Positions 1 to 32,430 of a DNA stretch of 64,000 nt are shown one piece after another; positions within the stretch are counted from its first letter, which is position 1; each line of letters starts with the position of its first letter. The notes beneath the pieces are model-generated. The model did no database searches and was not told the origin of the DNA. It was given only the letters and a program-made list of their open reading frames with translations. The position numbers were made by a program, and so were the translations under genes. The DNA comes from a virus. The stretch spans positions 32,001 to 96,000 of IMG/VR virus record IMGVR_UViG_3300044736_000016; one strand, written 5' to 3'.

Positions 1-1519
1 GGGTGGACTGCAACAGGAGCGAGGCGAGCAGGACGTTGATGTACACGGACTTGCCGGAGTTCGTCGCCCCGCCGATCAGCAGATGCGGGGTGGTCGTCAG
101 GTCGCCGACCGCGGACTGCCCGGAGAGGTCTGCGCCGAGGGCGATGGCCAGCCCGGTGCGGGCCACGATGCGGAAGGCCGGGGCCTGCACGAGGGACCGC
201 AGGGTGACCAGCTGGGCGGACTTGTTCGGCACCTCGATGCCCACGGCGGCCTTGCCGGGGATCGGCGCCTGGATCCGGATGGTGGCCGCAAGGGCGAGGG
301 ACAGGTCGGTCTGCCGCGTGGTGATGCGCCTGACCGACACGCCGGGGGCAGGCTGTAGGACGTACTGCGTGACCCGCGGGCTGGGGTTGACCTCGATCAC
401 CCGACCCATGACGCCGAAGGATTCCAGCGTGGATTCGATCAGCGAGCGGGTGTTGGCGATCTCCGCTTCCTGCCGAACGCGGTCAGTCTTGCCCTCGTCT
501 AGAAGGTCGATGGGCGGCAGGAGCCACTCTGAGTGCCCCGTCTCCAAATCTGGCAAGACCATGAGCGCGGTCTGTCCGGAGTCGCCAGCTGGATACTGCC
601 CGTCATCCGTGGCGGGTTTTGGAGACTCCGATGGGCGCGGAGGGTTCGCCATGGCCTCTCGCATCGGGCCGGCCAGCCACGGCACGCCCTGCCAGTTGCG
701 TCCAGCCTGAGCGGGAGCGTGCGTCTCGTCCTCCGCAGGCTCCTCCGTGTCGCCGCTCTCCTCGCCACGGATCCATCCCCACAGTCGCTCAGACCGTAGC
801 CCACGCCGCATCCCGTCGCGCATCGCACCGGCCACCACCGGCACATCAAGGTCCACGGCTAGCACCAGGCCGAGGCACGTCAGGCCGACGAACAGCACCA
901 CCGACCACCACGGCCCGACCCAGCCAGCTGCCGAATCCGCCAGCGAACCTCCGACCGACCCTGCCCCGCCCCGCGTCCACGGCACCAACGCGGTCAGCCC
1001 GAGCAGCCCCGGGATAGCGATGCCCACCCCCGCAGCCGAGGCGTGACCGTGCCCCAGCAGCAACCGAACTCCGACCAGCAGCAGACCGGCCACGAGCAGA
1101 GCATCCCCGACCACCCCCAGCCAGTCCGTGAGCATCGAGCCCTGCGGGATGAGCAGGAGCGGGATGGAGAGCAGCGCCGCGATGAGCGCCCCGACGCCGT
1201 GCAGGTTGCGCCGCTGGTCGTGGGTGACCTTGGGCGCCTTGGCGGTACGCCTTGCCGGTCGTCTGGTCCGGGTCGCCATCACGCCTCCTGCGGGAAGGTC
1301 GGGGAACTTGCGGCCGTGCTCTTTCTCATGGCACGGACGGCAGAGCACCATGAGGTTCGCACGCCTGCAGTCGTTCGGTCTGCGGTTCTTGTGGTGAGCC
1401 TGTAGCGCCCGATCCGTCTTGCACCGCTTGCATCTCTGGCCTCGGCGGAACTCGCGGCTGAGGTCGGGCCAGCACTCCGGGTAGTCGGTGCCGGGGTAGA
1501 CGCGGAACGTGGTAGCCAC
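1..1519 (-). CDS. ftsK: HNH domain fused in frame to a membrane-anchored FtsK/SpoIIIE DNA translocase (3' end outside the window); possible second start at ATG 1279
   Basis: Manual translation from GTG 1519 has no stop: CKRC..AHHKNRRPNDCRRANLMVLCRPCHEKEH (HNH), then MATRTRRP at 1279, several hydrophobic segments, LLPPIDLL, IRIQAPIPGKAAVGIEVPN and PHLLIGGATNSGKS (Walker A). Absent from the ORF track because it has no stop in the window. Confidence 0.88.
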   Translation of the reverse strand, partial: MATTFRVYPGTDYPECWPDLSREFRRGQRCKRCKTDRALQAHHKNRRPNDCRRANLMVLCRPCHEKEHGRKFPDLPAGGVMATRTRRPARRTAKAPKVTHDQRRNLHGVGALIAALLSIPLLLIPQGSMLTDWLGVVGDALLVAGLLLVGVRLLLGHGHASAAGVGIAIPGLLGLTALVPWTRGGAGSVGGSLADSAAGWVGPWWSVVLFVGLTCLGLVLAVDLDVPVVAGAMRDGMRRGLRSERLWGWIRGEESGDTEEPAEDETHAPAQAGRNWQGVPWLAGPMREAMANPPRPSESPKPATDDGQYPAGDSGQTALMVLPDLETGHSEWLLPPIDLLDEGKTDRVRQEAEIANTRSLIESTLESFGVMGRVIEVNPSPRVTQYVLQPAPGVSVRRITTRQTDLSLALAATIRIQAPIPGKAAVGIEVPNKSAQLVTLRSLVQAPAFRIVARTGLAIALGADLSGQSAVGDLTTTPHLLIGGATNSGKSVYINVLLASLLLQST

Positions 1520-1520
1520 A

Positions 1521-1766
1521 TCACGACGCCTTGGTGTTCCTGAGCACGCGCAGCGCCTGCTTGAGCGGTTCCGCTAATGGGTGCATATCAGAGAAGGTGG
1601 TGGTGGTGGCGACTGCCTCGGCTAGGTCCAGCAGTGCCCGCCGCAGGTCGTCCACCTCGCTCTGCTTAGTGAGGTGGACGCGACACCACTGGCAGACCGG
1701 CTTCTCATGGACAAGCCGCGCTGGCTGCCTGCCGCAGAATACGCACGGACTGCCCGTGGCCATCAC
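1521..1766 (-). CDS. Small Cys-rich phage protein
   Basis: CVFC..CQWC motifs; overlaps the upstream gene. Confidence 0.6.
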   Translation of the reverse strand: MMATGSPCVFCGRQPARLVHEKPVCQWCRVHLTKQSEVDDLRRALLDLAEAVATTTTFSDMHPLAEPLKQALRVLRNTKAS

Positions 1767-2062
1767 TCGCCCTCGGCAGCCTTGCGGGCTACGTCGTACG
1801 CCGCCAGCGCGTCTCGCAGCACAGGGTCATGGTCGGCGTGGGCGCGAGCCGCGGTGACGACGGGTTGCAGGATGCTCACCAGAGGGCGCAAGCGGTCAGC
1901 AACCGCCATCCCCGTCGCCTCAGCCGAGGTCACCATGATCGCGGTGAACTCCTCTGCCGTCGCGATACTGGCCTGTGGATCGACCGAGTAGACCCAAGCG
2001 GTCACCATGCCGCGGATCTTCGCGATCTCTGCGTCTGGGATCTTGATCTGGTCCACGGTCAC
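1763..2062 (-). CDS. Hypothetical phage protein
   Basis: 4-bp start/stop overlaps on both sides. Confidence 0.6.
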   Translation of the reverse strand: MTVDQIKIPDAEIAKIRGMVTAWVYSVDPQASIATAEEFTAIMVTSAEATGMAVADRLRPLVSILQPVVTAARAHADHDPVLRDALAAYDVARKAAEGE

Positions 2063-2460
2063 CTATCCTCAGGTGCCAGCGCGGATCCGGTCGGCCGCTC
2101 GTACTCGTCGGCCAGCAGCGTGGTCAGAGCGTCGATGGCAGGGACTAGACCACTCGGCGGCGGGAGGTATCCGAGTGCCAGCCGCTTCTCACGTTCCTTC
2201 CGTGCCGCTCGCATCTCGGGATTGGACCACACGCGATTCACGGCCTCAGCGGCGTCGAGAAGGCCATCACGCTGACGCCGCAACTCGCCCACAGTCCGCG
2301 CCGCTGCGTCCGCCTCTGCCTCCATCGCCGTGAGCCTAGCCTCCAACTCCGCGACCAGTTCCATCAGCCGTGCGTTTTCTGCCATCCCCGCCACGGTCCG
2401 ATCATGGACGATGTTGGACTGCTCGGCCATGTCGGCGGCGATCTCGTTGAGGTCACGCAT
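2059..2460 (-). CDS. Coiled-coil hypothetical protein
   Basis: Likely start MRDLNEI at 2460; heptad-like composition. Confidence 0.6.
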   Translation of the reverse strand: MRDLNEIAADMAEQSNIVHDRTVAGMAENARLMELVAELEARLTAMEAEADAAARTVGELRRQRDGLLDAAEAVNRVWSNPEMRAARKEREKRLALGYLPPPSGLVPAIDALTTLLADEYERPTGSALAPEDR

Positions 2461-2788
2461 CGCCCATTTCCGCAAGGGTAGTGTCGACGTCGTCCACGAG
2501 TTTGGTGATCGACTTCGCCCAGTCGTCGGTCGGCGGGGCCACTTCGGTGTACCCACTGAGCACCAGCGCGGCCTCGCGTAATAGCGCTCGCCATCCCGCC
2601 TCCCGCTGCAGGATGTACCGAGCCAGTACCCGGTCGTACTCCTTCGTGTGCTCCTGGAGGGCTGCGTAGTCGTCAGGGTGACGGACCGCGTCGTCCCCTA
2701 CGCCAGCCTGCCGCCTCGCCTCGTCCTGATAGATGGCGTGAATCTTGGCGCTCAGCCTCTCCACGGCCTCGGGGTCGAAGTCAGCCAT
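2453..2788 (-). CDS. Small protein with a RyR-domain-like motif
   Basis: ERLSAKIH..HPDDYAALQEHTKEYDR resembles the RyR repeat consensus; likely start MADFDP at 2788. Confidence 0.5.
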   Translation of the reverse strand: MADFDPEAVERLSAKIHAIYQDEARRQAGVGDDAVRHPDDYAALQEHTKEYDRVLARYILQREAGWRALLREAALVLSGYTEVAPPTDDWAKSITKLVDDVDTTLAEMGDA

Positions 2789-4271: not shown

Positions 4272-4805
4272 TCACGACGCCTCATCCACGTCGCGATCAG
4301 CCTCGCAGTCTCCGACAGGTGCTGGCGGCACAACCGAAGGCGACGGCAGGGTTGCCTGTCTGATGATCGCCATCACCGTCTCGGTGGCCTCCGCGTACTT
4401 GGAGCCGCGGCTGCGGTTCACCCCGTACACCTGCTCCACGATGAACGGCACGGTGGCTCCGCTGTGGACTAGTTCGATGACCTGCCGATTGACGCTCTCC
4501 GCGATCTCAGGGGCGATCACGGTATTGGTGTCGTGCAGCATCCGAACCTCCGGCCTGCGTAGTGGCTCATTCATGGCCGATGGAGTGATGTCCGTGCCCC
4601 AGTCGAACCCGAAGCTAGCCATCGGCGGAGCCGCCAGATACGCGATGAGTCTGCGCATCGTATCCGGCTCGTCGCGAACGAAGCCAAGGGCACAGTTGCA
4701 GGCATTGCAGATCAGTCCACGTATCTTCCCAGTTTCGTGGTCGTGGTCTACGACCAGTTTCCGGTACTGGGTGCATCCGATGCAGGTGCCGAAGACATTG
4801 CTCAT
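4272..4805 (-). CDS. Recombination endonuclease VII domain protein with a C-terminal extension
   Basis: CIGC..LVVDHDHETGKIRGLICNACNCALG..RRLIAYL. Confidence 0.88.
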   Translation of the reverse strand: MSNVFGTCIGCTQYRKLVVDHDHETGKIRGLICNACNCALGFVRDEPDTMRRLIAYLAAPPMASFGFDWGTDITPSAMNEPLRRPEVRMLHDTNTVIAPEIAESVNRQVIELVHSGATVPFIVEQVYGVNRSRGSKYAEATETVMAIIRQATLPSPSVVPPAPVGDCEADRDVDEAS

Positions 4806-6469
4806 AGGTCATCCTCTCTCGGTTCGTCTTCCATCGGCAGAATGGTCAGCGCAGGCACCGCCTCAGCGCTCGGCGGACGAGGGATCGCACTACGGATCAC
4901 CTCGCTCACCTCGGCGCACGCCGTCACGTATGGTCGCCCGCCCCCCGGCTTGATCCCGTAGATGTCGAGCACGATCTCGGGGACGAGAGACCCTCCGAGG
5001 AACAGTTCCATCACCCGACCCTCCAACACGCGCGCGCGCGAGGGCTCCTCTGTTCCGTATTCGGATGGGGTCGGTCCGGAACAGATCGCGAGCGGCTGGG
5101 AACGGCTCGGGAACAGGGCGGGAACAGTCTGCGGAACAGGCCCGACCGTCAGCCGTGGGCCGTTCGAGGCCAGCATCCGACCCGCCAGAGCGATGGCCTC
5201 GTCGTCCACGCGAGGCACCCAGAGCCGATGCGTTTCGCCCGTCGTCGGTATCACGTAGCACTCGCCTTGGGCCAGCCGCAGGGTGTCGTTCGGCACGCCG
5301 GGAACGAGCATCCGCGCCTCGTCTGGACGCATGCGGTGGATGAAGGCGGCGGCGAGTTGGTTGCGGAACGGGCCGGATTCCCGCTTGCTCCACGTCTGCG
5401 AGATGAACAGCCCGTTGACCATCACCTTGCGTCCCTCGCGGGTGATCGTTCCGGCGTGCTCCGCGATCTCTCCGGTGGTGTCCTCGCCGATGACGCGCCT
5501 CCACTCGTCCACGATTGTGAGCTCGGGCTGACCGTCTTCGATGCCGAGCTTGATGCGCCGCTCGATCTCCTCCACGGTCTCGCGCATGGCGAGCAGGATG
5601 TCCTCGTGGTCGAGGGCGATCGGTCGGATGAACGCGGCCTCGAGCGGGCGAAGGCGACCCGTCAGGCTTTTGGCGCTGATCCGTCCGTGGCCGTCGCAGA
5701 GGCGCAGGCCGGTGCCGATCAGGGCGGCTTGGATGCACAGCCATTCCGCGTCGCGAGACTTGCCAGAGCCCTGATGCCCACCCATCCCGGCCGAGTAGAG
5801 ACCAGCGAACATGTCGCCATCCTCGGTCGGCTCGGAGCGGACTAGGGAACTCGTCGCGGGATCCCAGCCGAGGGCGAGGAGTTGGCCGGGGCCGACCTCG
5901 CGGCGCCGGATGAGTTCGGTCAGCGTCGGCACCTTGACGTCGGCGGGGTTGGTGATGACCACCTCGGGCTCAGCGACGGGGCTGGCGATTCGGCGAGAAT
6001 CGTGGACCGCGTAGTGCTGTAGGCCAGCAGGCAGGGCTGGATTCGTCGCTAGCAGGTTGCGGGTCTGCATGGCGCCAGAGTTGATGGCGATTCGCAGTTC
6101 TGGCGTCAGCCCCTGATACGCCACCGCCCCGGTGAGCCTGTCCGGCATGTCACGCTTGCGCCAGAAGTGCCACCCGAGCGCAGCCGGAGATCCGACCGCT
6201 CCCACGAACACCGCAAACAGCACGCCGTCCTCTACCAACCGCAGCCACGTCGTCGGCCGGTCGAAGTGCCACTCGCTGTCTAGCTTGGCGTTTACGGCGT
6301 CGATCTTGGCCTGCCGTTGCTCTTGGCTGAGCCGAAGGTCGGTCTCGATGCGAACCTGCTCTTGTGTCGGGCCGGGGGTGGTGATCGCAGACCAGCAGAA
6401 GCCAATGCCGCATGCGCAGAACCCGGCAGCTGCGAGAGAACCGGCCCAGCGGACGTGCGAGTGGCTCAC
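4802..6469 (-). CDS. Membrane-anchored FtsK/HerA-superfamily ATPase
   Basis: Likely start GTG 6469 (GTGA overlap). Two hydrophobic segments, GGHQGSGKS Walker A, LTIVDEW Walker B, GRK..LFISQ motif. Confidence 0.8.
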   Translation of the reverse strand: MSHSHVRWAGSLAAAGFCACGIGFCWSAITTPGPTQEQVRIETDLRLSQEQRQAKIDAVNAKLDSEWHFDRPTTWLRLVEDGVLFAVFVGAVGSPAALGWHFWRKRDMPDRLTGAVAYQGLTPELRIAINSGAMQTRNLLATNPALPAGLQHYAVHDSRRIASPVAEPEVVITNPADVKVPTLTELIRRREVGPGQLLALGWDPATSSLVRSEPTEDGDMFAGLYSAGMGGHQGSGKSRDAEWLCIQAALIGTGLRLCDGHGRISAKSLTGRLRPLEAAFIRPIALDHEDILLAMRETVEEIERRIKLGIEDGQPELTIVDEWRRVIGEDTTGEIAEHAGTITREGRKVMVNGLFISQTWSKRESGPFRNQLAAAFIHRMRPDEARMLVPGVPNDTLRLAQGECYVIPTTGETHRLWVPRVDDEAIALAGRMLASNGPRLTVGPVPQTVPALFPSRSQPLAICSGPTPSEYGTEEPSRARVLEGRVMELFLGGSLVPEIVLDIYGIKPGGGRPYVTACAEVSEVIRSAIPRPPSAEAVPALTILPMEDEPREDDL

Positions 6470-6762
6470 GAAGCAGCCTCGTCCCGACCGCCTCGGAGAG
6501 CGTGCATCCGGGACGCCGGGAGGCTCAGCGACGTCTCCTGCCGGGGGATGCGGTAGACGTCTGGACGGTGGACGATCACGCCGCGGACTGGCTGAGGCGC
6601 AGGGCTGGAGGCCGCGGACTGGATACGGACGAGCGCCCGCACGAACCAGAGCAGGAACAGCGGCACGGCGACGACGGCCACGAGCGTCTGGTACAGCGGC
6701 ACGTGCATGCCCAGATCGAAGGCCACAGCAGCGACGACGAGCAGGGCGGCAGCGGGGATCAT
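6466..6762 (-). CDS. Small 2-TM membrane protein
   Basis: Two hydrophobic stretches; coupled to the ATPase gene. Confidence 0.65.
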   Translation of the reverse strand: MIPAAALLVVAAVAFDLGMHVPLYQTLVAVVAVPLFLLWFVRALVRIQSAASSPAPQPVRGVIVHRPDVYRIPRQETSLSLPASRMHALRGGRDEAAS

Positions 6763-7010
6763 TCGTCTCCCTCCTCGGCGTTCGCTGCATCTGCACGGAT
6801 CTCCTCCAGCACCTCGTCCGGGTGGCGCATACCCACCCGGACGCAGGCGCGGATCACCCGCGAGAGCGAGTAGAGCTTTGAGGGCACTGCAACGACGGTC
6901 TGGTACAAGGCGTGGGCTCGGTCCCCCATCTCGCGGAGCCAGTCCCGCTCAGCGTGGGTAAAGTAGCCATGCAGCCCGATGTGCTTGCGCACCCGCTGTG
7001 CCTCGCTCAG
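6759..7010 (-). CDS. Small putative DNA-binding protein (ribbon-helix-helix-like); start uncertain, possibly CTG 7010
   Basis: IGLHGYFT..LSRVIRACVRVG pattern. Confidence 0.4.
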   Translation of the reverse strand: MSEAQRVRKHIGLHGYFTHAERDWLREMGDRAHALYQTVVAVPSKLYSLSRVIRACVRVGMRHPDEVLEEIRADAANAEEGDE

Positions 7011-8744: not shown

Positions 8745-9200
8745 GCGACCCAGTCATCACCGTTGGTCTTCGCGGACATTCGTGGATGCCTCAGTGGAAG
8801 TGTCCTCATTGCGATTACACCGTGAAAATCGCCGCATGCAGAGATATCATCGCTGGTCTGAGAGGAGCCATTGCGCTTCACAATGCAGTGGAGCACGGTG
8901 GCCCCGGTAAGGTGTGGAGCAGCCCCGAAGTGTGGCCCAAGACTTCATGACGATCGCGGAAATGTCAACCGAGCGCCGACGAGCCCGCACCTGGACACAC
9001 AGCGGCTGGACCGTCGCGACGCATGGCGGCATACCGGTGGCCTTCGCCCGGTATCCGTGGCTGCGCGACCCGTTCCACTACCGCGACGGTGGCCCCGCAG
9101 AACCCGGTGATCTCACAGAGCACGAACTCTCCGAGCACACATGCGGACTACGCGGCCCTGATGGTCGGCTGCTCTGCTCGCTGATCATTGCAAGGACAGG

Positions 9201-9509
9201 ATGACCGTGACCGATACGCCCGCAGCGCAGAACGCCTACCCCCAGCTCGTTGCCCGCTACCGCGACGCTCGTCGTCAGTACCGTCAGCCCGGTGTGTCCA
9301 ACTCTGCGGCTGCACTGGGCATGGACGAGCAGGAATACTGCCGCAGGTTCGTCGCGGAGTTGGGGCCGATCGTCACGCAGACCAGCACGGTAAGCATGGC
9401 GAACATCGCGTGGCTCGAGGGTGCGGCATACGACGAGGCAGGGCTGCAAGATGCACGTGCGTCGGCGCTGAGCGAGACGGTCGGACGCGCTGGTCAAGTC
9501 AAGCCGTGA
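9201..9509 (+). CDS. Hypothetical protein, paralogue of 15457-15759
   Basis: Shared motif RY..ARR.YR.P.(V/I)S..A..G..E.EYC.R(F/Y)VA..G.I. Confidence 0.65.
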   Translation: MTVTDTPAAQNAYPQLVARYRDARRQYRQPGVSNSAAALGMDEQEYCRRFVAELGPIVTQTSTVSMANIAWLEGAAYDEAGLQDARASALSETVGRAGQVKP

Positions 9510-9603
9510 AACGCGACCGTGATGAGCAGGAGGACCGACGCGACCAGCCCACACCCATCGTCCTGCCTCTGCCCTTGCCCCAACCTGCGGAGCCTGTGCC
9601 GGT

Positions 9604-10215
9604 ATGAGCCCGCCGATCATCGGATACCGCGCATGGCGGGTCGTTGGTGACTACCGGCTGCAGAGCGTCTTCACGCTCGCTCGATGGCCGGTGAGGGATC
9701 GGCTGGAGGCAGAGTGCCGCCTACCGAATACGGCGATCAGCCTAGCACCCACTACTAGCCACACCGCGCCTTCCCTCGAATGCTCCTGCGGCATCTACGC
9801 GCGGACGACGCTCGCCGGTATCTTCGATGAACTCTGGCGTGGTGGTATGGCGGGAGAACACTCGGTCATCGTCGGAACCGTGGCCATGTTCGGCAGCACG
9901 TACCATGGCAAGGCGCATCCACACACCATCAGGGCACAGTACGCTCAGCCGATCTGCCTGCTTGCGCCCGACGCGTGGTATCCGTTCCGCACTCCGGTAG
10001 AGACACTGAGCGAACCGCCGACCGACATCGACATGACGGGGTGGCGCAGTACTCTAGACCGTGTCTCGGAGCAGTATGGCCTGCCCATCGTGGCGCGCTC
10101 TGGCATCGAGAAGTACGCTGCGGAGTTCGGCGAGCCGCTGAGATCGGCCGGGGATGAGCGGGTCACACGTGCAGCGGAGGAGCCACGCTGGCGCTCGTGG
10201 TGGCCGTGGGGATGA
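9604..10215 (+). CDS. Conserved phage hypothetical protein (GYRAW..HxAP..CxCGIYA family)
   Basis: Motifs recognised from actinobacterial phage proteins. Confidence 0.65.
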   Translation: MSPPIIGYRAWRVVGDYRLQSVFTLARWPVRDRLEAECRLPNTAISLAPTTSHTAPSLECSCGIYARTTLAGIFDELWRGGMAGEHSVIVGTVAMFGSTYHGKAHPHTIRAQYAQPICLLAPDAWYPFRTPVETLSEPPTDIDMTGWRSTLDRVSEQYGLPIVARSGIEKYAAEFGEPLRSAGDERVTRAAEEPRWRSWWPWG

Positions 10216-10831: not shown

Positions 10832-11659
10832 GTGGCTGCACTGTTCTCACACGCCCGCAGACTGGCTGCCGCGCTCGACCCTGTCATCCGGATGCGACAG
10901 GCTGGTATCACCGCTGACCAGTGGCAGGAGATTCTTCTACGTAGCACTGCGCAGCGGATCATCATCCTCGCATCCCGCCAAGGGGGGAAGTCGACCGTCG
11001 TTGCTACGGACGCCTTGCATGTCGCTGAGCAGGACCCGCCCGGCGACGTCATCATTGGCGCGGTCAAGCAAGATCAGTCAGCGGAAATGCTTCGGAAGTC
11101 CAAGACGATCTACGGCATCACGGGCAGCATCTTCGAGGACGAACTGGACGGCGATCTCAAGGGGAACTCGATTCTCCGGGTGGAGATGCCGAACGGGTCG
11201 CGAATCCTAGCGGTGCCAGGGAAGGCTGGCACTGTGCGATCGTTCACGGCCAAACTGCTGATCATCGACGAGGCGGCCTACGTCCCTGACGACTTCTACA
11301 AGGCCGTCTTCCCCATGCTCGCCGTATCCCACGGCCGCATCATTCTGCTCTCCACCGCGCATGCCAAGTTCGGAGCGTTCTATGACATCTGGACCGAGGC
11401 GCCTGAGTGGGACTTTCGGCTGCCAGCTGAGGCGCAGGAGGAGGCGTGGCTCAAGATCAAGGTGCCGTGGTGGGAGTGTCCGCGTATACGGCCGGCTTTC
11501 ATCGAGGCTGAGCGAGCGAGGTTCGGCAACGCTTACGTGCAGAGGGAGTACGAGTTGGAGTTCGCCGACGCCATCACCGCTGCCTTCCGCACCGAGGACA
11601 TCGACGCCATGGCGCGCGACGACGTGGAGCCGTGGGCGTGCGCAGGGTGGGCGCGGTGA
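10832..11659 (+). CDS. Terminase large subunit, ATPase half
   Basis: ASRQGGKST Walker A, LIIDEAAYV Walker B, LLST coupling motif, QREYELEF. Confidence 0.9.
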   Translation: MAALFSHARRLAAALDPVIRMRQAGITADQWQEILLRSTAQRIIILASRQGGKSTVVATDALHVAEQDPPGDVIIGAVKQDQSAEMLRKSKTIYGITGSIFEDELDGDLKGNSILRVEMPNGSRILAVPGKAGTVRSFTAKLLIIDEAAYVPDDFYKAVFPMLAVSHGRIILLSTAHAKFGAFYDIWTEAPEWDFRLPAEAQEEAWLKIKVPWWECPRIRPAFIEAERARFGNAYVQREYELEFADAITAAFRTEDIDAMARDDVEPWACAGWAR

Positions 11660-12001: not shown

Positions 12002-12217
12002 ATGCTCGACATCGATGCAGCCAACGGTCTCTGGTACTGCGCTGTTCGCGATGGTCTCGTGGAGACGTACGCCGAGGACGCGTCCACATGGGCGCTGACC
12101 GACCGCGGACTGGAGGTTGCCTACCGGCGAGCGTTCACGCAAGGCGCGGATCCAGAGTGCCTGTCAGCGAGCCAACTCATTTCCCTCGCGGTGTACGGCA
12201 TCACGGACATGGGGTGA
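12002..12217 (+). CDS. Small hypothetical protein, probably leaderless
   Basis: TACCCT at 11990-11995, 6 nt before ATG 12002. Confidence 0.55.
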   Translation: MLDIDAANGLWYCAVRDGLVETYAEDASTWALTDRGLEVAYRRAFTQGADPECLSASQLISLAVYGITDMG

Positions 12218-12245
12218 GGGCGTCGCCAGCTGGAGACCGGTCCTG

Positions 12246-13094
12246 ATGCGGCTTCGGTTGGGCGTTGATCTTGGAAAACTGAACGACTATAGCGCCGTGA
12301 CCGTGTGCGAGGTGACCGACGCACCCGCAGCGCTGGGGCATGTTACCGCAGCGGACGTGGACGCGATGAGCATCGGTATCGACCCTCTCAGCCCGCTCGG
12401 TATCCTTGGCGTGAGGCATGCGCAGCCCGCGTACGTCGATCCGCTCGACCACCTGCCGGGACCGCGTGTGCCGTCGCTCGAACCGCTCTACACCGCACGC
12501 CACATCGAACGCGCCCCGCTCAATACCCCCTATACCGACGTGGCGATCGGCGTGAGGGTCATCGTCCAGTGGCTCCGGCAGCAGTTTCCTCGCATCGTGC
12601 CGGAACTCTACGTCGATGCCACCGGGGTCGGTATCCCGGTGGTGGACATCCTGCGACGCGAACTGTCAGGCATCCTGCATCGCCTGGTGCCGGTCACGAT
12701 CGTCAGCGGCGATGGGTATCACGACGTGGTCACGGCGGACGGGGCGGACCGCAAGGGCAGGGTGGTGCCGCGGAGTGCGCGTGGGCTGAAGGTCGGCAAG
12801 GGCTTCCTCGTGTCGCGGTTGCAGGCGTTGTTGCAGACGCAGCGCCTTGTCGGTCCGAGGACGATGGTCGCCGAGTTGCAGGACGAGTTGCGGGTGTTCG
12901 AGACGCGGGCGAAGGAGGGGCGGGACCAGTACGGCGCGAAGGTCGGTGCGCACGACGACCTTGTCATTTCGGCAGCGCTCGCCGTGCTGGACAGACCTCG
13001 GCAGGACGCTCGGCGCGTGGTGGAGACGCTGGAGACGATCAGCGGTCCTAGTATCGTCGGCGGCGGGCCGGCGGGGGCATGGGACATCCGGTGA
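12246..13094 (+). CDS. Terminase large subunit, RNase H-like nuclease half
   Basis: GVDLGKLNDYSA, VDATGVG, HDDLVISAALA. Confidence 0.88.
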   Translation: MRLRLGVDLGKLNDYSAVTVCEVTDAPAALGHVTAADVDAMSIGIDPLSPLGILGVRHAQPAYVDPLDHLPGPRVPSLEPLYTARHIERAPLNTPYTDVAIGVRVIVQWLRQQFPRIVPELYVDATGVGIPVVDILRRELSGILHRLVPVTIVSGDGYHDVVTADGADRKGRVVPRSARGLKVGKGFLVSRLQALLQTQRLVGPRTMVAELQDELRVFETRAKEGRDQYGAKVGAHDDLVISAALAVLDRPRQDARRVVETLETISGPSIVGGGPAGAWDIR

Positions 13095-13564: not shown

Positions 13565-15460
13565 GTGGCGATCCTCGGTCCTGACGGTCGGGCGTTCCCA
13601 CAGACCACACGCGCAGAGTTCGCGGCTGCTCAGTCCGTACTATCGCGGCTACCTGCCGAACTGCGTCGTGCCGTGAACCTTGACGAGATCGGTGTCAGCG
13701 CTACCCAGATCATCGGGGGACTGATCTACGAGGAACGGGCGCCCGAACTCGCCGGGTCCAAGGGCATGGAGGTGTGGCGGGAGATGGGGCATGACGCCAC
13801 CTTGGCGATGTGCCTCCACGCCACCATCAACCCGCTGCGCAGCGCCGACTGGTTCATGGAGCCCGCGAGCGAAGACCCTGTCCACGTCGAGCAAGCTGAC
13901 CTCGCACACTGGTGCCTGTGGGAGTTCGGCACCATGTCATACGACGACCTGTTGCGCCAGCAGATGCGTGCCATGAAGCAGTACGGGATTGGATGCTCAG
14001 AGCTCTGCTATCGACCGATTCCCTCCGGTGAGTTCGCAGGCAAGTGGGGATGGGAGAAGTTGGCGTGGCGTTCACCGCTGTCCCTCTACCGCTTCAACGT
14101 CGAGTCGGTGCAGACGGAATACGGTGGCACGCGTCGCGAACTCGTCGAGGTGGTGCAGCGTGATCCTGCCAGCGGTGGGCTGTTCTACCTTCCCAAGGAC
14201 AAGGTACTGCTGTTCATCAACGACCTCGAAGGTGAAAACTTCCTCGGCAATTCAAGCTTTCGCCAGTGCTACGAGGCATGGCGGTACAAGCGTGCCATCG
14301 CGCGCCTGGAGGCCATCGCCCTAGAACGCTGCGGGATGGGACGCATGAAGGCCACGCTTCCGCAGGACTACTCCGACGAGGAGCGCAAGATGGCGCGGCA
14401 GATCGTTGAGAACGACCGCATCCACGAGAACGCCGGCATCGTCACCACCGAGGCGGTGCCGGTCGAGGTCATCCACAACTCAATCGAGGGGGCGGCATTC
14501 CGGGCGGCGTGGGAGGCGTACGACGCGGCGCTGTGCTTCCCGTTCCTCACGCAGTACCTGCTGCTCGGGCAGCGGGGCAACAGCGGGGCGTACTCGCTCA
14601 GCCAAGATCACTCGCAGATTCAGCTCACGCAGCTCAACGGTGATGCGAACCAGTTCGAGCAGGTGCTGAATCTCAGTCCGGGCATCCCGCTGCTCATCGC
14701 CATCAACTACGCGAACGCCGACCCGAGCAAGATGCCGAAGTTGCAGCACGGAGACATCGGCCGCAAGGACATGGAGCTGATGGGCAAGACCCTTCTCGCG
14801 CTGTCGCAGGGTGGGTGGGTCATGCCGACAGCGCAGGACGAGGACACGCTGCGCAAGTTCGTCGACCTCCCGGAGCGCGATCCGCTGCTCGGCCCCGAGG
14901 CGTTGGTGCCGCTCATCCAGCAGGTGCTGCCGCCGACGTGGTGGGGCACGCCGCACCAGGCTGGACAGGCGGTCAACCCTGCGGCCAAGGCTCTGGTCGG
15001 CTCTGGGACGCCCGTGTCGAGTGTTCAGCAGGCGACCGATGCGAAGGGGCAGTTTTCCGAGCGTGAGTGGGCCGTCATGGCTGAGCGATCGGTGAGGGCA
15101 CGGATGCCGTGGCGCCGCCCTGCGGTCAAGGGTGGACGCGTCACCGCCGAGGACGCTGTGAGGGTGCGGATGGGGGAGTATCTGTTGGACTACTTCGAGC
15201 AGGCCGACCGACCACGTATGCAGAAGCCCGACTCGCCATCGGTGCGCATTGCCAAGCGGCGCAGGCCGTACCAAGTAGCGCGTATGGCACAGGATGCGGC
15301 CAAAGTGGTGGAGATCAACGCACGAGCCAAGGCGGGCGGCGGGAGTGCGAACGGCAAGCGCAAGGTGGTCGTGAGCCCAGCGGACATCGTAGCGAGGCAG
15401 GGGCGTAGGTCGGTGCAGGACGTGCTTGCGGGCCTCGGCGCGAACGGGAGCGGGAAGTGA
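13565..15460 (+). CDS. Portal protein (DUF935/Mu gp29-like) with a basic C-terminal extension
   Basis: ENFLGNSSFRQCYEAW, ERCGMG, GAYSLSQDH; position after the terminase. Confidence 0.85.
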   Translation: MAILGPDGRAFPQTTRAEFAAAQSVLSRLPAELRRAVNLDEIGVSATQIIGGLIYEERAPELAGSKGMEVWREMGHDATLAMCLHATINPLRSADWFMEPASEDPVHVEQADLAHWCLWEFGTMSYDDLLRQQMRAMKQYGIGCSELCYRPIPSGEFAGKWGWEKLAWRSPLSLYRFNVESVQTEYGGTRRELVEVVQRDPASGGLFYLPKDKVLLFINDLEGENFLGNSSFRQCYEAWRYKRAIARLEAIALERCGMGRMKATLPQDYSDEERKMARQIVENDRIHENAGIVTTEAVPVEVIHNSIEGAAFRAAWEAYDAALCFPFLTQYLLLGQRGNSGAYSLSQDHSQIQLTQLNGDANQFEQVLNLSPGIPLLIAINYANADPSKMPKLQHGDIGRKDMELMGKTLLALSQGGWVMPTAQDEDTLRKFVDLPERDPLLGPEALVPLIQQVLPPTWWGTPHQAGQAVNPAAKALVGSGTPVSSVQQATDAKGQFSEREWAVMAERSVRARMPWRRPAVKGGRVTAEDAVRVRMGEYLLDYFEQADRPRMQKPDSPSVRIAKRRRPYQVARMAQDAAKVVEINARAKAGGGSANGKRKVVVSPADIVARQGRRSVQDVLAGLGANGSGK

Positions 15461-30723: not shown

Positions 30724-32430
30724 GTGGCGACCGATACCAAGACCACCGAGTCCGACGCCCAAGCTGTCGAACATTCGCATCCCAAGGCGGGCGGCGGGAA
30801 GTACACACACTCCCACGCCATCACGGGCACGAAGGCCCACGGGCACGCCGTAGACGCGAAGGACAACGGCTCCACGACCGAACTCCTGCCCACGGTCGCT
30901 GCGATGAGCGAGACCTCGCCCGGGGTGATGGCACTGCGGTTCCCCCAGCAGGCAAGGCTCTCTGAGGGGGCGCCGATCGACTACCTGTGCACTGGGGAGT
31001 GGACGTTCCCCGAGTTGAACCGCGGCAATCCGATCTGTGTGACCCGCGACGATCTCACCGATGTCAAGCGGCTGTGGGACGAGAACGCCTACGGGCAGAA
31101 CCTGCCGATCATCGATGAGAACCACGATCCGAACCGCGCAGTGGGGTGGATCAAGCGCCTCGACTGGCATCCCTCTGACCCCGACAGGCTGGTGGCGGTC
31201 CCTGACTGGAACGAGGGATGCGACAAACTCGTCGCTTCTGGCGCGTACGGGTACACATCACCGCTTCTGCTCCTGAACTGGCGCGACCCAGTGTCCGGCA
31301 CGGTGTATCCCGTCGTCCCCGGCGGCCTCGGCCTGGATCCCAACGACCCCGAGGGCGATACGTCCGGGCTGGCCTTGGCGAACCACCCGAAAATCAAGAA
31401 GCTCAGTGCCAAGTTTGCGGCATCCGAGAGCGGTGATACGCAGGCTGCGCTGATTGCGTTCGGCGAGGCAGGCACGGTGTTCAGCGGCGTTGCGGCAGAC
31501 ACTGCCCGCGCACTGCTGGCTGAGGGTGACGGCGCACCGATCGACTTCGCTGCGGCCGACACCTCTGCGGACATGACCGATCTGCCGCCGTGCAGTTGGG
31601 CGCCGCCCTATGCGGAGTACAACCGCTGTCCGGGCTATACGCGGGTGCTCGCAGATGGTGACGGCGATGCTCCAGGCGATCTGCCCGGATGCTGCCGTCT
31701 GGCGGCGCAGTGCAATGGCTACTCCCCGGTCCCAAACGGGACTGTTCCACCGTATCAGCGCTCCTACTACAGCGAGGGACACAGCATGGCCGACAACCCG
31801 GCCCAGCCGGCCGGAGTGCCGGCCGCCAATCCGTCTCCGGTACCCAACGCGCCGCAGACCGCCCCGCCCGCGGCCCCGCAGCCACCGCCAGCACCACCGC
31901 CCCCTGCTCCCACCCCTGCCGCGCAGCACTCCGCGGACATGGGAGAGATGCAGCGCATGCTCGCTGCGGAGACCCACCAGCGCGAGACGATGCAGACCGA
32001 GGTCGCACGGCTCGGCGAGGAGCTGAGGCGGCGCGATGAGGACGACAAGATCCGCAGTGTGACGGTTCGGCTGTCAGAGCTCGCGAAGCGTTTTCCCCCC
32101 GCCGTCCTGGACAGTCTCGCCGGAGCCGCAAAGAACGGCGTGCGCGACCGCACCCGCCTGCTCAGGCTGAGCGAGCATCCGGTAGGGATCGAAGCGCTCG
32201 AGGCCATCCCGCAGGTGAAGGGTGGCGCGGTGTCGCTGAGCGAGATCGGCACTGGCGCAGAGGCTGACCCGGAGACCTCCTACTCGCGGCTGCGGAAGTT
32301 CGCCGAGGAGCTGCGCGCGGCAGACCCGAAGCTCACCCGCGAGCAGGCGATGCTCAAGGCGAGCGAGGACCACCCTGACCTCGTCGCTGCGTACCGCGCC
32401 GAGAAGTATGTGCCCGGCGCGGCTGGCTGA
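30724..32430 (+). CDS. Prohead protease (Mu gpI-like) with a C-terminal scaffold
   Basis: IDENH..AVGWIKRL..YGYTSP..LALANHP; Pro-rich linker and coiled coil. Confidence 0.85.
   Translation: MATDTKTTESDAQAVEHSHPKAGGGKYTHSHAITGTKAHGHAVDAKDNGSTTELLPTVAAMSETSPGVMALRFPQQARLSEGAPIDYLCTGEWTFPELNRGNPICVTRDDLTDVKRLWDENAYGQNLPIIDENHDPNRAVGWIKRLDWHPSDPDRLVAVPDWNEGCDKLVASGAYGYTSPLLLLNWRDPVSGTVYPVVPGGLGLDPNDPEGDTSGLALANHPKIKKLSAKFAASESGDTQAALIAFGEAGTVFSGVAADTARALLAEGDGAPIDFAAADTSADMTDLPPCSWAPPYAEYNRCPGYTRVLADGDGDAPGDLPGCCRLAAQCNGYSPVPNGTVPPYQRSYYSEGHSMADNPAQPAGVPAANPSPVPNAPQTAPPAAPQPPPAPPPPAPTPAAQHSADMGEMQRMLAAETHQRETMQTEVARLGEELRRRDEDDKIRSVTVRLSELAKRFPPAVLDSLAGAAKNGVRDRTRLLRLSEHPVGIEALEAIPQVKGGAVSLSEIGTGAEADPETSYSRLRKFAEELRAADPKLTREQAMLKASEDHPDLVAAYRAEKYVPGAAG

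Follow-up and report, generated by a model that had tools for sequence, protein, structure and literature searches.

A phage gene fuses an HNH nuclease domain to a membrane-anchored FtsK that lacks the gamma domain

Does a phage encode a nuclease and a membrane-anchored DNA pump as one protein, and if so, what might such a protein do? The question is raised by the left end of a 64,000-nt stretch of viral DNA (hereafter the window), which comprises bases 32001-96000 of IMG/VR virus record IMGVR_UViG_3300044736_000016, a record of 109,768 bp. An open reading frame (ORF) on the minus strand starts at GTG 1519 and runs without a stop to the window edge (2..1519). Of the 706 codons of the gene, here called HNH-FtsK, the first 506 fill window 1..1519 (minus strand) and the last 200 are found outside it to the left, at record 31399-32000 (L002:11399-12000); the whole-record ORF (L002:11399-13519(-), 706 amino acids (aa)) extends 601 nt beyond the left window edge. 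The product consists of an HNH domain (aa 1-75), a basic segment of ~30 aa, four transmembrane (TM) helices, a linker, and the FtsK alpha domain and beta motor. Domain and TM analyses thus bear out the original prediction for this DNA, which had read the GTG 1519 frame as an HNH running in frame into a membrane-anchored FtsK with alpha domain and Walker A motif. At 66% GC and with a neighbouring frame also open for 81 codons, an open frame at the start of this gene is little evidence by itself; homology, selection and conservation in relatives take it beyond chance. HNH-FtsK is a genuine single phage gene, maintained over evolutionary time, and the fusion is real, conserved and rare. As to its role, we favour a functionally coupled pump and nuclease that would capture and cut DNA at the membrane, a reading from sequence to which we assign a probability of roughly 55%.

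Several relatives carry the same fusion. In L003, a 79-kb IMG/VR contig whose protein is 98% identical, the in-frame junction is the same. L007 (L007:6001-8076) encodes a 691-aa fusion that is 55% identical, and its junction reads PGGVM where the window has PAGGVM, one codon shorter by an in-frame 3-nt difference. P0008, a JGI entry available as protein only, is a 748-aa fusion, ~45% identical overall, with the same HNH at its start; its identity to the window protein is 72% in the HNH and 29% in the TM region. No other segment is as well conserved among the fusions as the HNH. We also compared contigs from four other soil metagenomes over window 1-2600. One of them, 12,081 nt long and from an independent run, spans window 1-1508 with 46 substitutions and zero gaps, and the only indels in the short contigs that cross 1277-1300 cancel one another out. 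Single short contigs from two runs have one-base deletions at window 1208, which fall in the FtsK part and in divergent relatives. Between the window and L007, the HNH frame shows proportions of synonymous (pS) and nonsynonymous (pN) differences of 0.32 and 0.06, i.e. a pN/pS of 0.19, a contrast that the shifted frames do not have, and GC at third codon positions in the HNH frame (0.78-0.88) is like that in the rest of the gene. By these sequence comparisons, the HNH frame is under purifying selection.

These data bear directly on the most trivial explanation, that the fusion stems from an indel introduced during sequencing or assembly, from an accident in the very recent past, or from the joining of a phage 5' end to a host ftsK at an integration site. 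A single 1-nt change would indeed restore a TGA overlapping the FtsK ATG. However, the fusion recurs in independent assemblies and lineages, the junction indel is in frame, and no contig compared shows a net frameshift. In addition, the record has direct terminal repeats and is rated complete, with the gene 31-33 kb from its end, and even the nearest cellular FtsK shares only 60% identity with the motor. We therefore regard an artefact or junction as barely credible. The original prediction had allowed for a recent accidental fusion, against which stand the fusions in diverged lineages, the 3-nt junction indel and the independent metagenome contigs, and for an integration junction, which does not fit a gene in mid-operon of a complete phage genome with terminal repeats. 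It had also named two observations that would overturn the fusion: an indel restoring the TGA at ATG 1279, of which contigs crossing 1277-1300 contain none, and the encoding of HNH and FtsK apart in all homologues; no homologue with a separate HNH gene was seen.

How would such a gene be translated? The junction GGAGGCGTGATG (1277..1288, minus strand) consists of a GGAGG Shine-Dalgarno sequence at 1288-1284, GTG at 1282-1280 and ATG at 1279-1277, in the layout GGAGG-C-GTG-ATG, with an out-of-frame TGA at 1281-1279 overlapping the ATG. ATG 1279-1277 is the ancestral ftsK start and the candidate start for a short, HNH-free form of 626 aa. The ribosome-binding site and ATG predicted to be retained at the junction are present in the window, L003 and L007, in each with GGAGG at -9 to -5, and the junction Met is kept even in P0008, whose junction is otherwise only ~24% identical. 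The long form starts at GTG 1517..1519 (minus strand), and all four fusion sequences begin with Val-Ala at this GTG. In the window and L003, the GTG lies 1 nt past the TGA of the upstream gene, which encodes 81 aa in the window, and its Shine-Dalgarno sequence is weak at best; the two together suggest translational coupling. A promoter and terminator scan returned neither on the coding strand, and none of the RNA runs listed contained this DNA. A short HNH-free isoform beside the long HNH-FtsK is plausible on this layout: initiation at the GTG, by coupling to the upstream gene, would yield HNH-FtsK, and initiation at the old ftsK ATG, with its GGAGG still in place, would probably also yield plain FtsK. 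If both isoforms are made, a hexameric ring could carry anywhere from zero to six nucleases.

The internal start also affects how the architecture is recorded. P0002 was gene-called from Met57 and P0007 from the FtsK Met, though the DNA of both is fused. Since gene callers start at such internal Mets, protein databases under-report HNH-FtsK, and the practical lesson from these two fused genes is that the architecture stays largely invisible there. P0003-P0005 were likewise called from the FtsK Met; junction DNA was compared in the window, L003 and L007.

The N-terminal domain (aa 1-75; 1295..1519, minus strand) is supported as HNH by Pfam, PHROG, profile and structure matches. Pfam PF01844 aligns to aa 30-69 with 18.5 bits, below its gathering cut-off of 21.4, and the HNH of L007 reaches 21.6 bits when neighbouring stretches are counted. 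Nine PHROG HNH families match the domain (E 4e-6 to 2e-4), phmmer retrieved 551 homologues of it among 1.8 billion representatives, and its profile matches the IscB HNH in the PDB at 1.5e-9. An AlphaFold2 model with a predicted local distance difference test score of 87 contains the beta-beta-alpha core (strands 39-43 and 56-60, helix 61-68). Its best structural match is the GVE2 phage HNH (Z 5.5, root-mean-square deviation 3.2 Å, 63 residues aligned), and further matches include McrA (Z 5.0) and Cas5-HNH (Z 4.6); modest Z values are to be expected for a domain of only 80 aa. The zinc ligands C30, C33, C60 and C63 and the catalytic H42/H43 and H64 are invariant in 12 of 12 aligned sequences; N55 and H68 are shared by the four fusions and by most free-standing relatives. 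The domain is an HNH by fold and catalytic residues, and sequence and model predict it to be catalytically intact.

A nuclease fold need not cut, however. DotN, a zinc protein on the VirD4-type ATPase DotL of the Legionella type IV coupling complex, offers a precedent for a non-catalytic adaptor, an HNH-fold zinc module that docks or clamps DNA on the motor. DotN/IcmJ is among the matches of the domain, with a profile E value of 0.007, structure ranks 3, 9 and 21, and Z 3.7. Yet the active nucleases GVE2 HNH, McrA and IscB match better, and the zinc ligands and catalytic histidines are invariant and N55 and H68 are present in every fusion, which makes an adaptor of this kind unlikely.

At 75 aa, the HNH is a catalytic core only, without a DNA-recognition module. 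Where else does it occur? No other PF01844 match was found in the window's own 110-kb genome, where HNH-FtsK is the sole match, and no free-standing copy in three related phage records or in IMG/VR. Within IMG/VR the HNH was not found outside the HNH-FtsK phages, nor at any other site there. The longer proteins of a 5.8-billion set did not contain it apart from the phage FtsK clade, no HNH relative sharing words was found among proteins of 44-140 aa, no close HNH in the 301 genomes searched from the Dormiibacterota-side phylum, and no usable match in the ESM Atlas. A place in the HNH homing endonuclease class was considered and rejected, as the protein has no extra DNA-binding domain and no free-standing mobile copy. 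Some HNH relatives have membrane segments of their own. The best relative among the 1.8 billion representatives, P0010 (53%), is a 138-aa protein with N-terminal TM helices, and TM segments occur in 15 of the 150 top HNH matches; P0010, P0015, P0023, P0026 and P0049 are the membrane-tethered relatives that we name. In the 352-aa phage protein encoded at viral locus L195:1722-2780 (+) (IMGVR_UViG_3300020176_000214), the HNH is central and a TM anchor lies at the C-terminus; proteins of 350-500 aa with this layout form a group among the HNH relatives.

The rest of the protein is FtsK. A basic cytoplasmic segment (aa 82-105; 1205..1276, minus strand) leads from the HNH to TM1, with nine Lys/Arg among the 32 residues of aa 76-107. 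Hydropathy places four TM helices at aa 106-224 (848..1204, minus strand), although Pfam FtsK_4TM itself gave no match in the protein. Lys/Arg residues number nine ahead of TM1 and six behind TM4, and the two outward loops contain none; the positive-inside rule therefore predicts both termini inside and hence both the HNH and the motor in the cytoplasm. An acidic, proline-rich linker (aa 225-333; 521..847, minus strand) is followed by the alpha domain (aa 334-432; 224..520, minus strand; PF17854, 2e-28) and the start of the beta (RecA-like) motor (2..160, minus strand), with the Walker A motif GGATNSGKS at 47-73; the motor continues left of the window. FtsK_SpoIIIE (PF01580) matches aa 454-625 at 6e-51, Walker A and Walker B (VVVIDELAD) are both intact, and the motor matches P. 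aeruginosa FtsK (PDB 2IUU) at E 2e-90. FtsK_gamma (PF09397) was not found by Pfam in the full 706 aa; the protein ends ~20 aa past the motor, and all eight FtsKs of the phage clade described below end at the same point without gamma. The FtsK part is therefore cellular-type in its alpha/beta motor and membrane anchor but has lost the head made up of a linker and gamma. In cellular FtsK, gamma reads the FtsK-orienting polar sequences (KOPS) and activates XerD (PMC3130261), so a protein without it would neither read KOPS nor activate XerD nor resolve dimers. Dimer resolution, one of the roles first proposed for this protein, is thus set aside, since gamma is missing from every member of the phage clade.

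Where did the phage FtsK come from? From an alignment of 73 rows covering the alpha-beta region, we built a tree by maximum likelihood (quick search in IQ-TREE). Its cellular FtsKs came from a genome scan for motor patterns (e.g. PHLLIGG), which may miss actinobacterial FtsKs. The eight phage FtsKs form one clade (Shimodaira-Hasegawa-like approximate likelihood ratio test (SH-aLRT) 99), which lies inside a 28-row group with FtsKs of Dormiibacterota and related soil metagenome-assembled genomes (MAGs; SH-aLRT 96). FtsKs from Candidatus Dormiibacterota MAGs align colinearly to aa 83/85-704, i.e. the whole FtsK part, and the 60% motor identity given above is to one of them. These cellular proteins, 770-800 aa in length, have no HNH but possess gamma (PF09397, at 695-754). 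The description of the FtsK as host-like can accordingly be kept for its Dormiibacterota-side position in the tree and its TM and motor regions, but not for gamma, which is missing left of the window. In this pattern-biased scan, the nearest cellular FtsKs (L099-L103, L180-L182) are from Dormiibacterota and not from Actinomycetota. Metagenome and genome scans with motor-domain patterns returned mostly cellular FtsKs, not missing members of the clade, and viral-contig scans with P0006, a clade member considered below, and P0008 as queries returned nothing. The phage portal protein, searched against the 301 Dormiibacterota-side genomes, has matches of 27-31% only. The tree and alignments fit a single capture of ftsK from a Dormiibacterota-like host lineage.

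The phage clade splits into two subclades, one that includes the window and L003 and one that includes L007 and P0008, so that both contain HNH fusions, with the HNH at an identical position. Identity along the gene is uneven. Between the window and L007, identity is ~90% for aa 1 to ~160 (HNH, junction and TM1-2) and 20-60% beyond. P0008 shows high identity to the window in the HNH alone, and P0003 matches the window at 97-100% in alpha-beta but at only 75% in the TM region. On these comparisons the HNH-FtsK gene is mosaic. A further discontinuity is seen in L003:6001-6090, which differs from window 1430-1519 at many positions within the first ~30 HNH codons while the rest of the gene is nearly identical, indicating a recombination breakpoint inside the HNH coding region.

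Mosaicism invites another explanation, in which the HNH is a selfish passenger: a formerly free-standing, homing-type HNH landed upstream of ftsK, lost its stop, the TGA overlapping the ATG, and persists as a tolerated extension that serves its own spread and not the pump. Apart from a one-base shift, the junction does resemble an ordinary TGATG boundary between genes, and free-standing HNH relatives end a few residues past the shared HGRKFP motif. The HNH is also conserved far above its flanks, with 89% identity to L007, and its presence varies, since P0006 has none. On the other hand, homing HNH enzymes require a DNA-recognition module, which this HNH lacks; the window's genome has no second PF01844 domain, and in IMG/VR the HNH occupies one site only. 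The frame, moreover, has been kept across lineages that are 45-55% identical, even through a 3-nt indel, and it evolves under purifying selection. We consider the passenger explanation doubtful.

The coupled pump and nuclease that we favour would work as follows. Without gamma, the FtsK would translocate dsDNA at the membrane, where it is held, without regard to sequence. Because the 75-aa HNH has no targeting domain, it would depend on the pump for DNA delivery: covalently joined to the HNH and fixed at the inner membrane face, the pump would bring the DNA, and the HNH would nick or cut it as it is reeled towards the membrane. Such a device could be used early in infection on membrane-located DNA. 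Candidate targets are the host chromosome, the incoming DNA of a superinfecting rival, and the phage's own DNA, processed for movement; host or competitor DNA is the favoured target. The membrane-tethered forms among the nearest HNH relatives fit this 'capture and cut' reading at the level of sequence, and translocases of the HerA/FtsK type that feed DNA to associated nucleases provide a precedent (PMC12839542).

A related but more tentative version, which is possible though well short of even odds, places the nuclease within the FtsK ring as a membrane 'pump-and-cut' machine. It would either destroy DNA at the membrane, leading to exclusion of rival phages or takeover of the host, or cut and export the phage's own dsDNA to neighbouring cells without a relaxase, alongside a VirD4-type ATPase and a second membrane ATPase from the same leftward operon.

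Several observations weigh against a functional coupling of pump and nuclease. The HNH is separated from the motor by a membrane domain of ~130 aa and a 100-aa linker. In P0006, the N-terminal extension is not an HNH, and the pump thus works without one. Only five or six contigs, each of soil origin, make up the family. Synthesis of the long isoform would rely on translational coupling, its own Shine-Dalgarno sequence being weak. Lastly, each ORF contains 7-8 copies of GGAGG, and 12-15% of Gly codons are GGA, so the internal start site is suggestive and not proof.

How does HNH-FtsK compare with known systems? With cellular FtsK (P. aeruginosa, PDB 2IUU; Dormiibacterota, L180:1435-3747) it has in common four TM helices, a long linker and an alpha-beta hexameric dsDNA motor; it differs in having no gamma winged helix-turn-helix (wHTH), in its extra N-terminal HNH and in being phage-encoded. 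Phage FtsKs were recognised two decades ago but still have no assigned function, and to our knowledge no described example carries a nuclease; a literature search likewise found no published description of an HNH-FtsK fusion. Among phage-borne motors, the FtsK-like proteins of Cluster J mycobacteriophages (Omega gp203), whose role is unknown, are encoded in genomes of ~110 kb and are 45% identical over the motor. These proteins have no membrane domain and keep a divergent gamma (PMC3706429). HNH-FtsK has the reverse layout, with a membrane domain and without gamma, plus the HNH.

Membrane-anchored ATPases of the FtsK family are also found on other mobile elements, namely TcpA of pCW3 and TraB of Streptomyces plasmids. 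In contrast to these, HNH-FtsK has a true FtsK alpha domain, groups with chromosomal FtsKs and has no C-terminal wHTH. Its match to NCBIfam plasmid_TraB is 49.8 bits against a cut-off of 800. Assignment as TraB or as a type IV secretion system coupling protein was rejected, given this weak family score and the position of the motor in the tree with chromosomal FtsKs; the PF02534 match in the genome belongs to a different gene.

On the nuclease side, HK97 gp74 is a small phage HNH endonuclease of a similar kind. The GVE2 HNH (PDB 5H0M/5H0O) is a CCCH-zinc HNH of similar size that likewise has no targeting domain and relies on a partner ATPase. These small phage HNHs are free-standing, soluble and encoded beside the terminase, whereas the HNH described here is covalently linked to a membrane pump whose gene is distant from those for packaging. 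The HerA/FtsK 'capture' systems and HerA-NurA (PMC12839542, PMC10853773, PMC9960219) share with HNH-FtsK the theme of an FtsK-HerA ATPase with a nuclease acting on translocated DNA, but their nuclease is usually separate and of another fold, their ATPase is HerA-like and soluble, and they serve cellular defence or repair. Type II Zorya, with its ZorAB motor and HNH effector ZorE, is another membrane machine with an HNH thought to act on membrane DNA, yet its motor is of a different kind and it is a host defence system; the ZorE match to our HNH is weak and generic (19 bits against a cut-off of 600).

Seen against these systems, HNH-FtsK has a design of its own: a full copy of a membrane-anchored cellular FtsK from which the domain controlling direction and recombinase has been removed and to which a nuclease, now the most conserved part of the protein, has been added. 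The combination of a sequence-blind motor and a cutter at the membrane is testable. If cutting depends on pumping, viruses would have a new means of destroying or processing DNA at the cell envelope, and the protein would be a natural single-chain case of a principle put forward for HerA/FtsK defence, 'translocase feeds nuclease'.

The genomic setting bears on one further explanation, in which the HNH is a packaging helper that assists the terminase as the HK97-type HNH does, and would be carried by a membrane pump because the large terminase ORF is limited to an ATPase. HNH-FtsK holds the genome's sole PF01844 match, and the TerL ATPase domain is encoded by a separate 275-aa ORF (10832-11659, plus strand; PF03237), which belongs to phrog_7579, a family of ATPase-only TerL ORFs. 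After a gap of 457 nt, the next ORF (12117-13094, plus strand) encodes 325 aa of a function-unknown family (phrog_27743) in which no recognised nuclease domain was found; candidate readings of the region are a split TerL, an intervening element and a diverged nuclease half. A Mu-type portal gene follows at 13565-15460 (plus strand). However, the terminase is 9.4 kb from HNH-FtsK on the opposite strand (terminase ATPase and portal are 9-12 kb away), and the leftward operon that contains HNH-FtsK is long, tightly packed and made up of non-structural genes. It is also difficult to see how capsid packaging would fit with a membrane anchor, and P0006 has no HNH. A packaging role is therefore very improbable, and a terminase-associated HNH of the HK97 gp74 type was rejected because the gene is not adjacent to terminase or portal.

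Two further ATPases are encoded in the record. Upstream of HNH-FtsK, window 4802-6796 (minus strand) encodes a 664-aa membrane-anchored P-loop protein (GxxGSGKS) that matches no Pfam, PHROG or NCBIfam family and gives a faint HerA match in the PDB (E 0.33). Its homologue in L007 (3459-5207, plus strand; 32% identical, E 3e-65) is also upstream of the fusion, and this membrane P-loop protein of 580-660 aa may be a partner of FtsK. At a like position, L003:2759-4663 (+) contains a 634-aa ORF. The genes between the P-loop protein and HNH-FtsK vary, with an endonuclease VII in the window and a DnaQ-like exonuclease in L007. The VirD4-type ATPase (PF02534; record 8797-9945) is ~21.5 kb further on the same strand and is also present in the record of L003.

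Directly upstream of HNH-FtsK, window 1521-2062 (minus strand) contains two small genes of 81 and 99 aa. The 81-aa gene (1521..1766, minus strand) has a CxxC...CxxC pattern, and its stop abuts the GTG start. Both genes are absent from L007, and ~188 nt replace them in the 12-kb metagenome contig (X3), so the 81-aa gene is not part of a conserved unit; 1521-2062 is a local indel polymorphism between otherwise close phages. A coiled-coil protein precedes HNH-FtsK in both phages, at window 2059-2556 (minus strand, 165 aa) and L007:5767-5994 (plus strand, 75 aa), and the two share only the tail ...EY(x)xPTGxALAPEDR.

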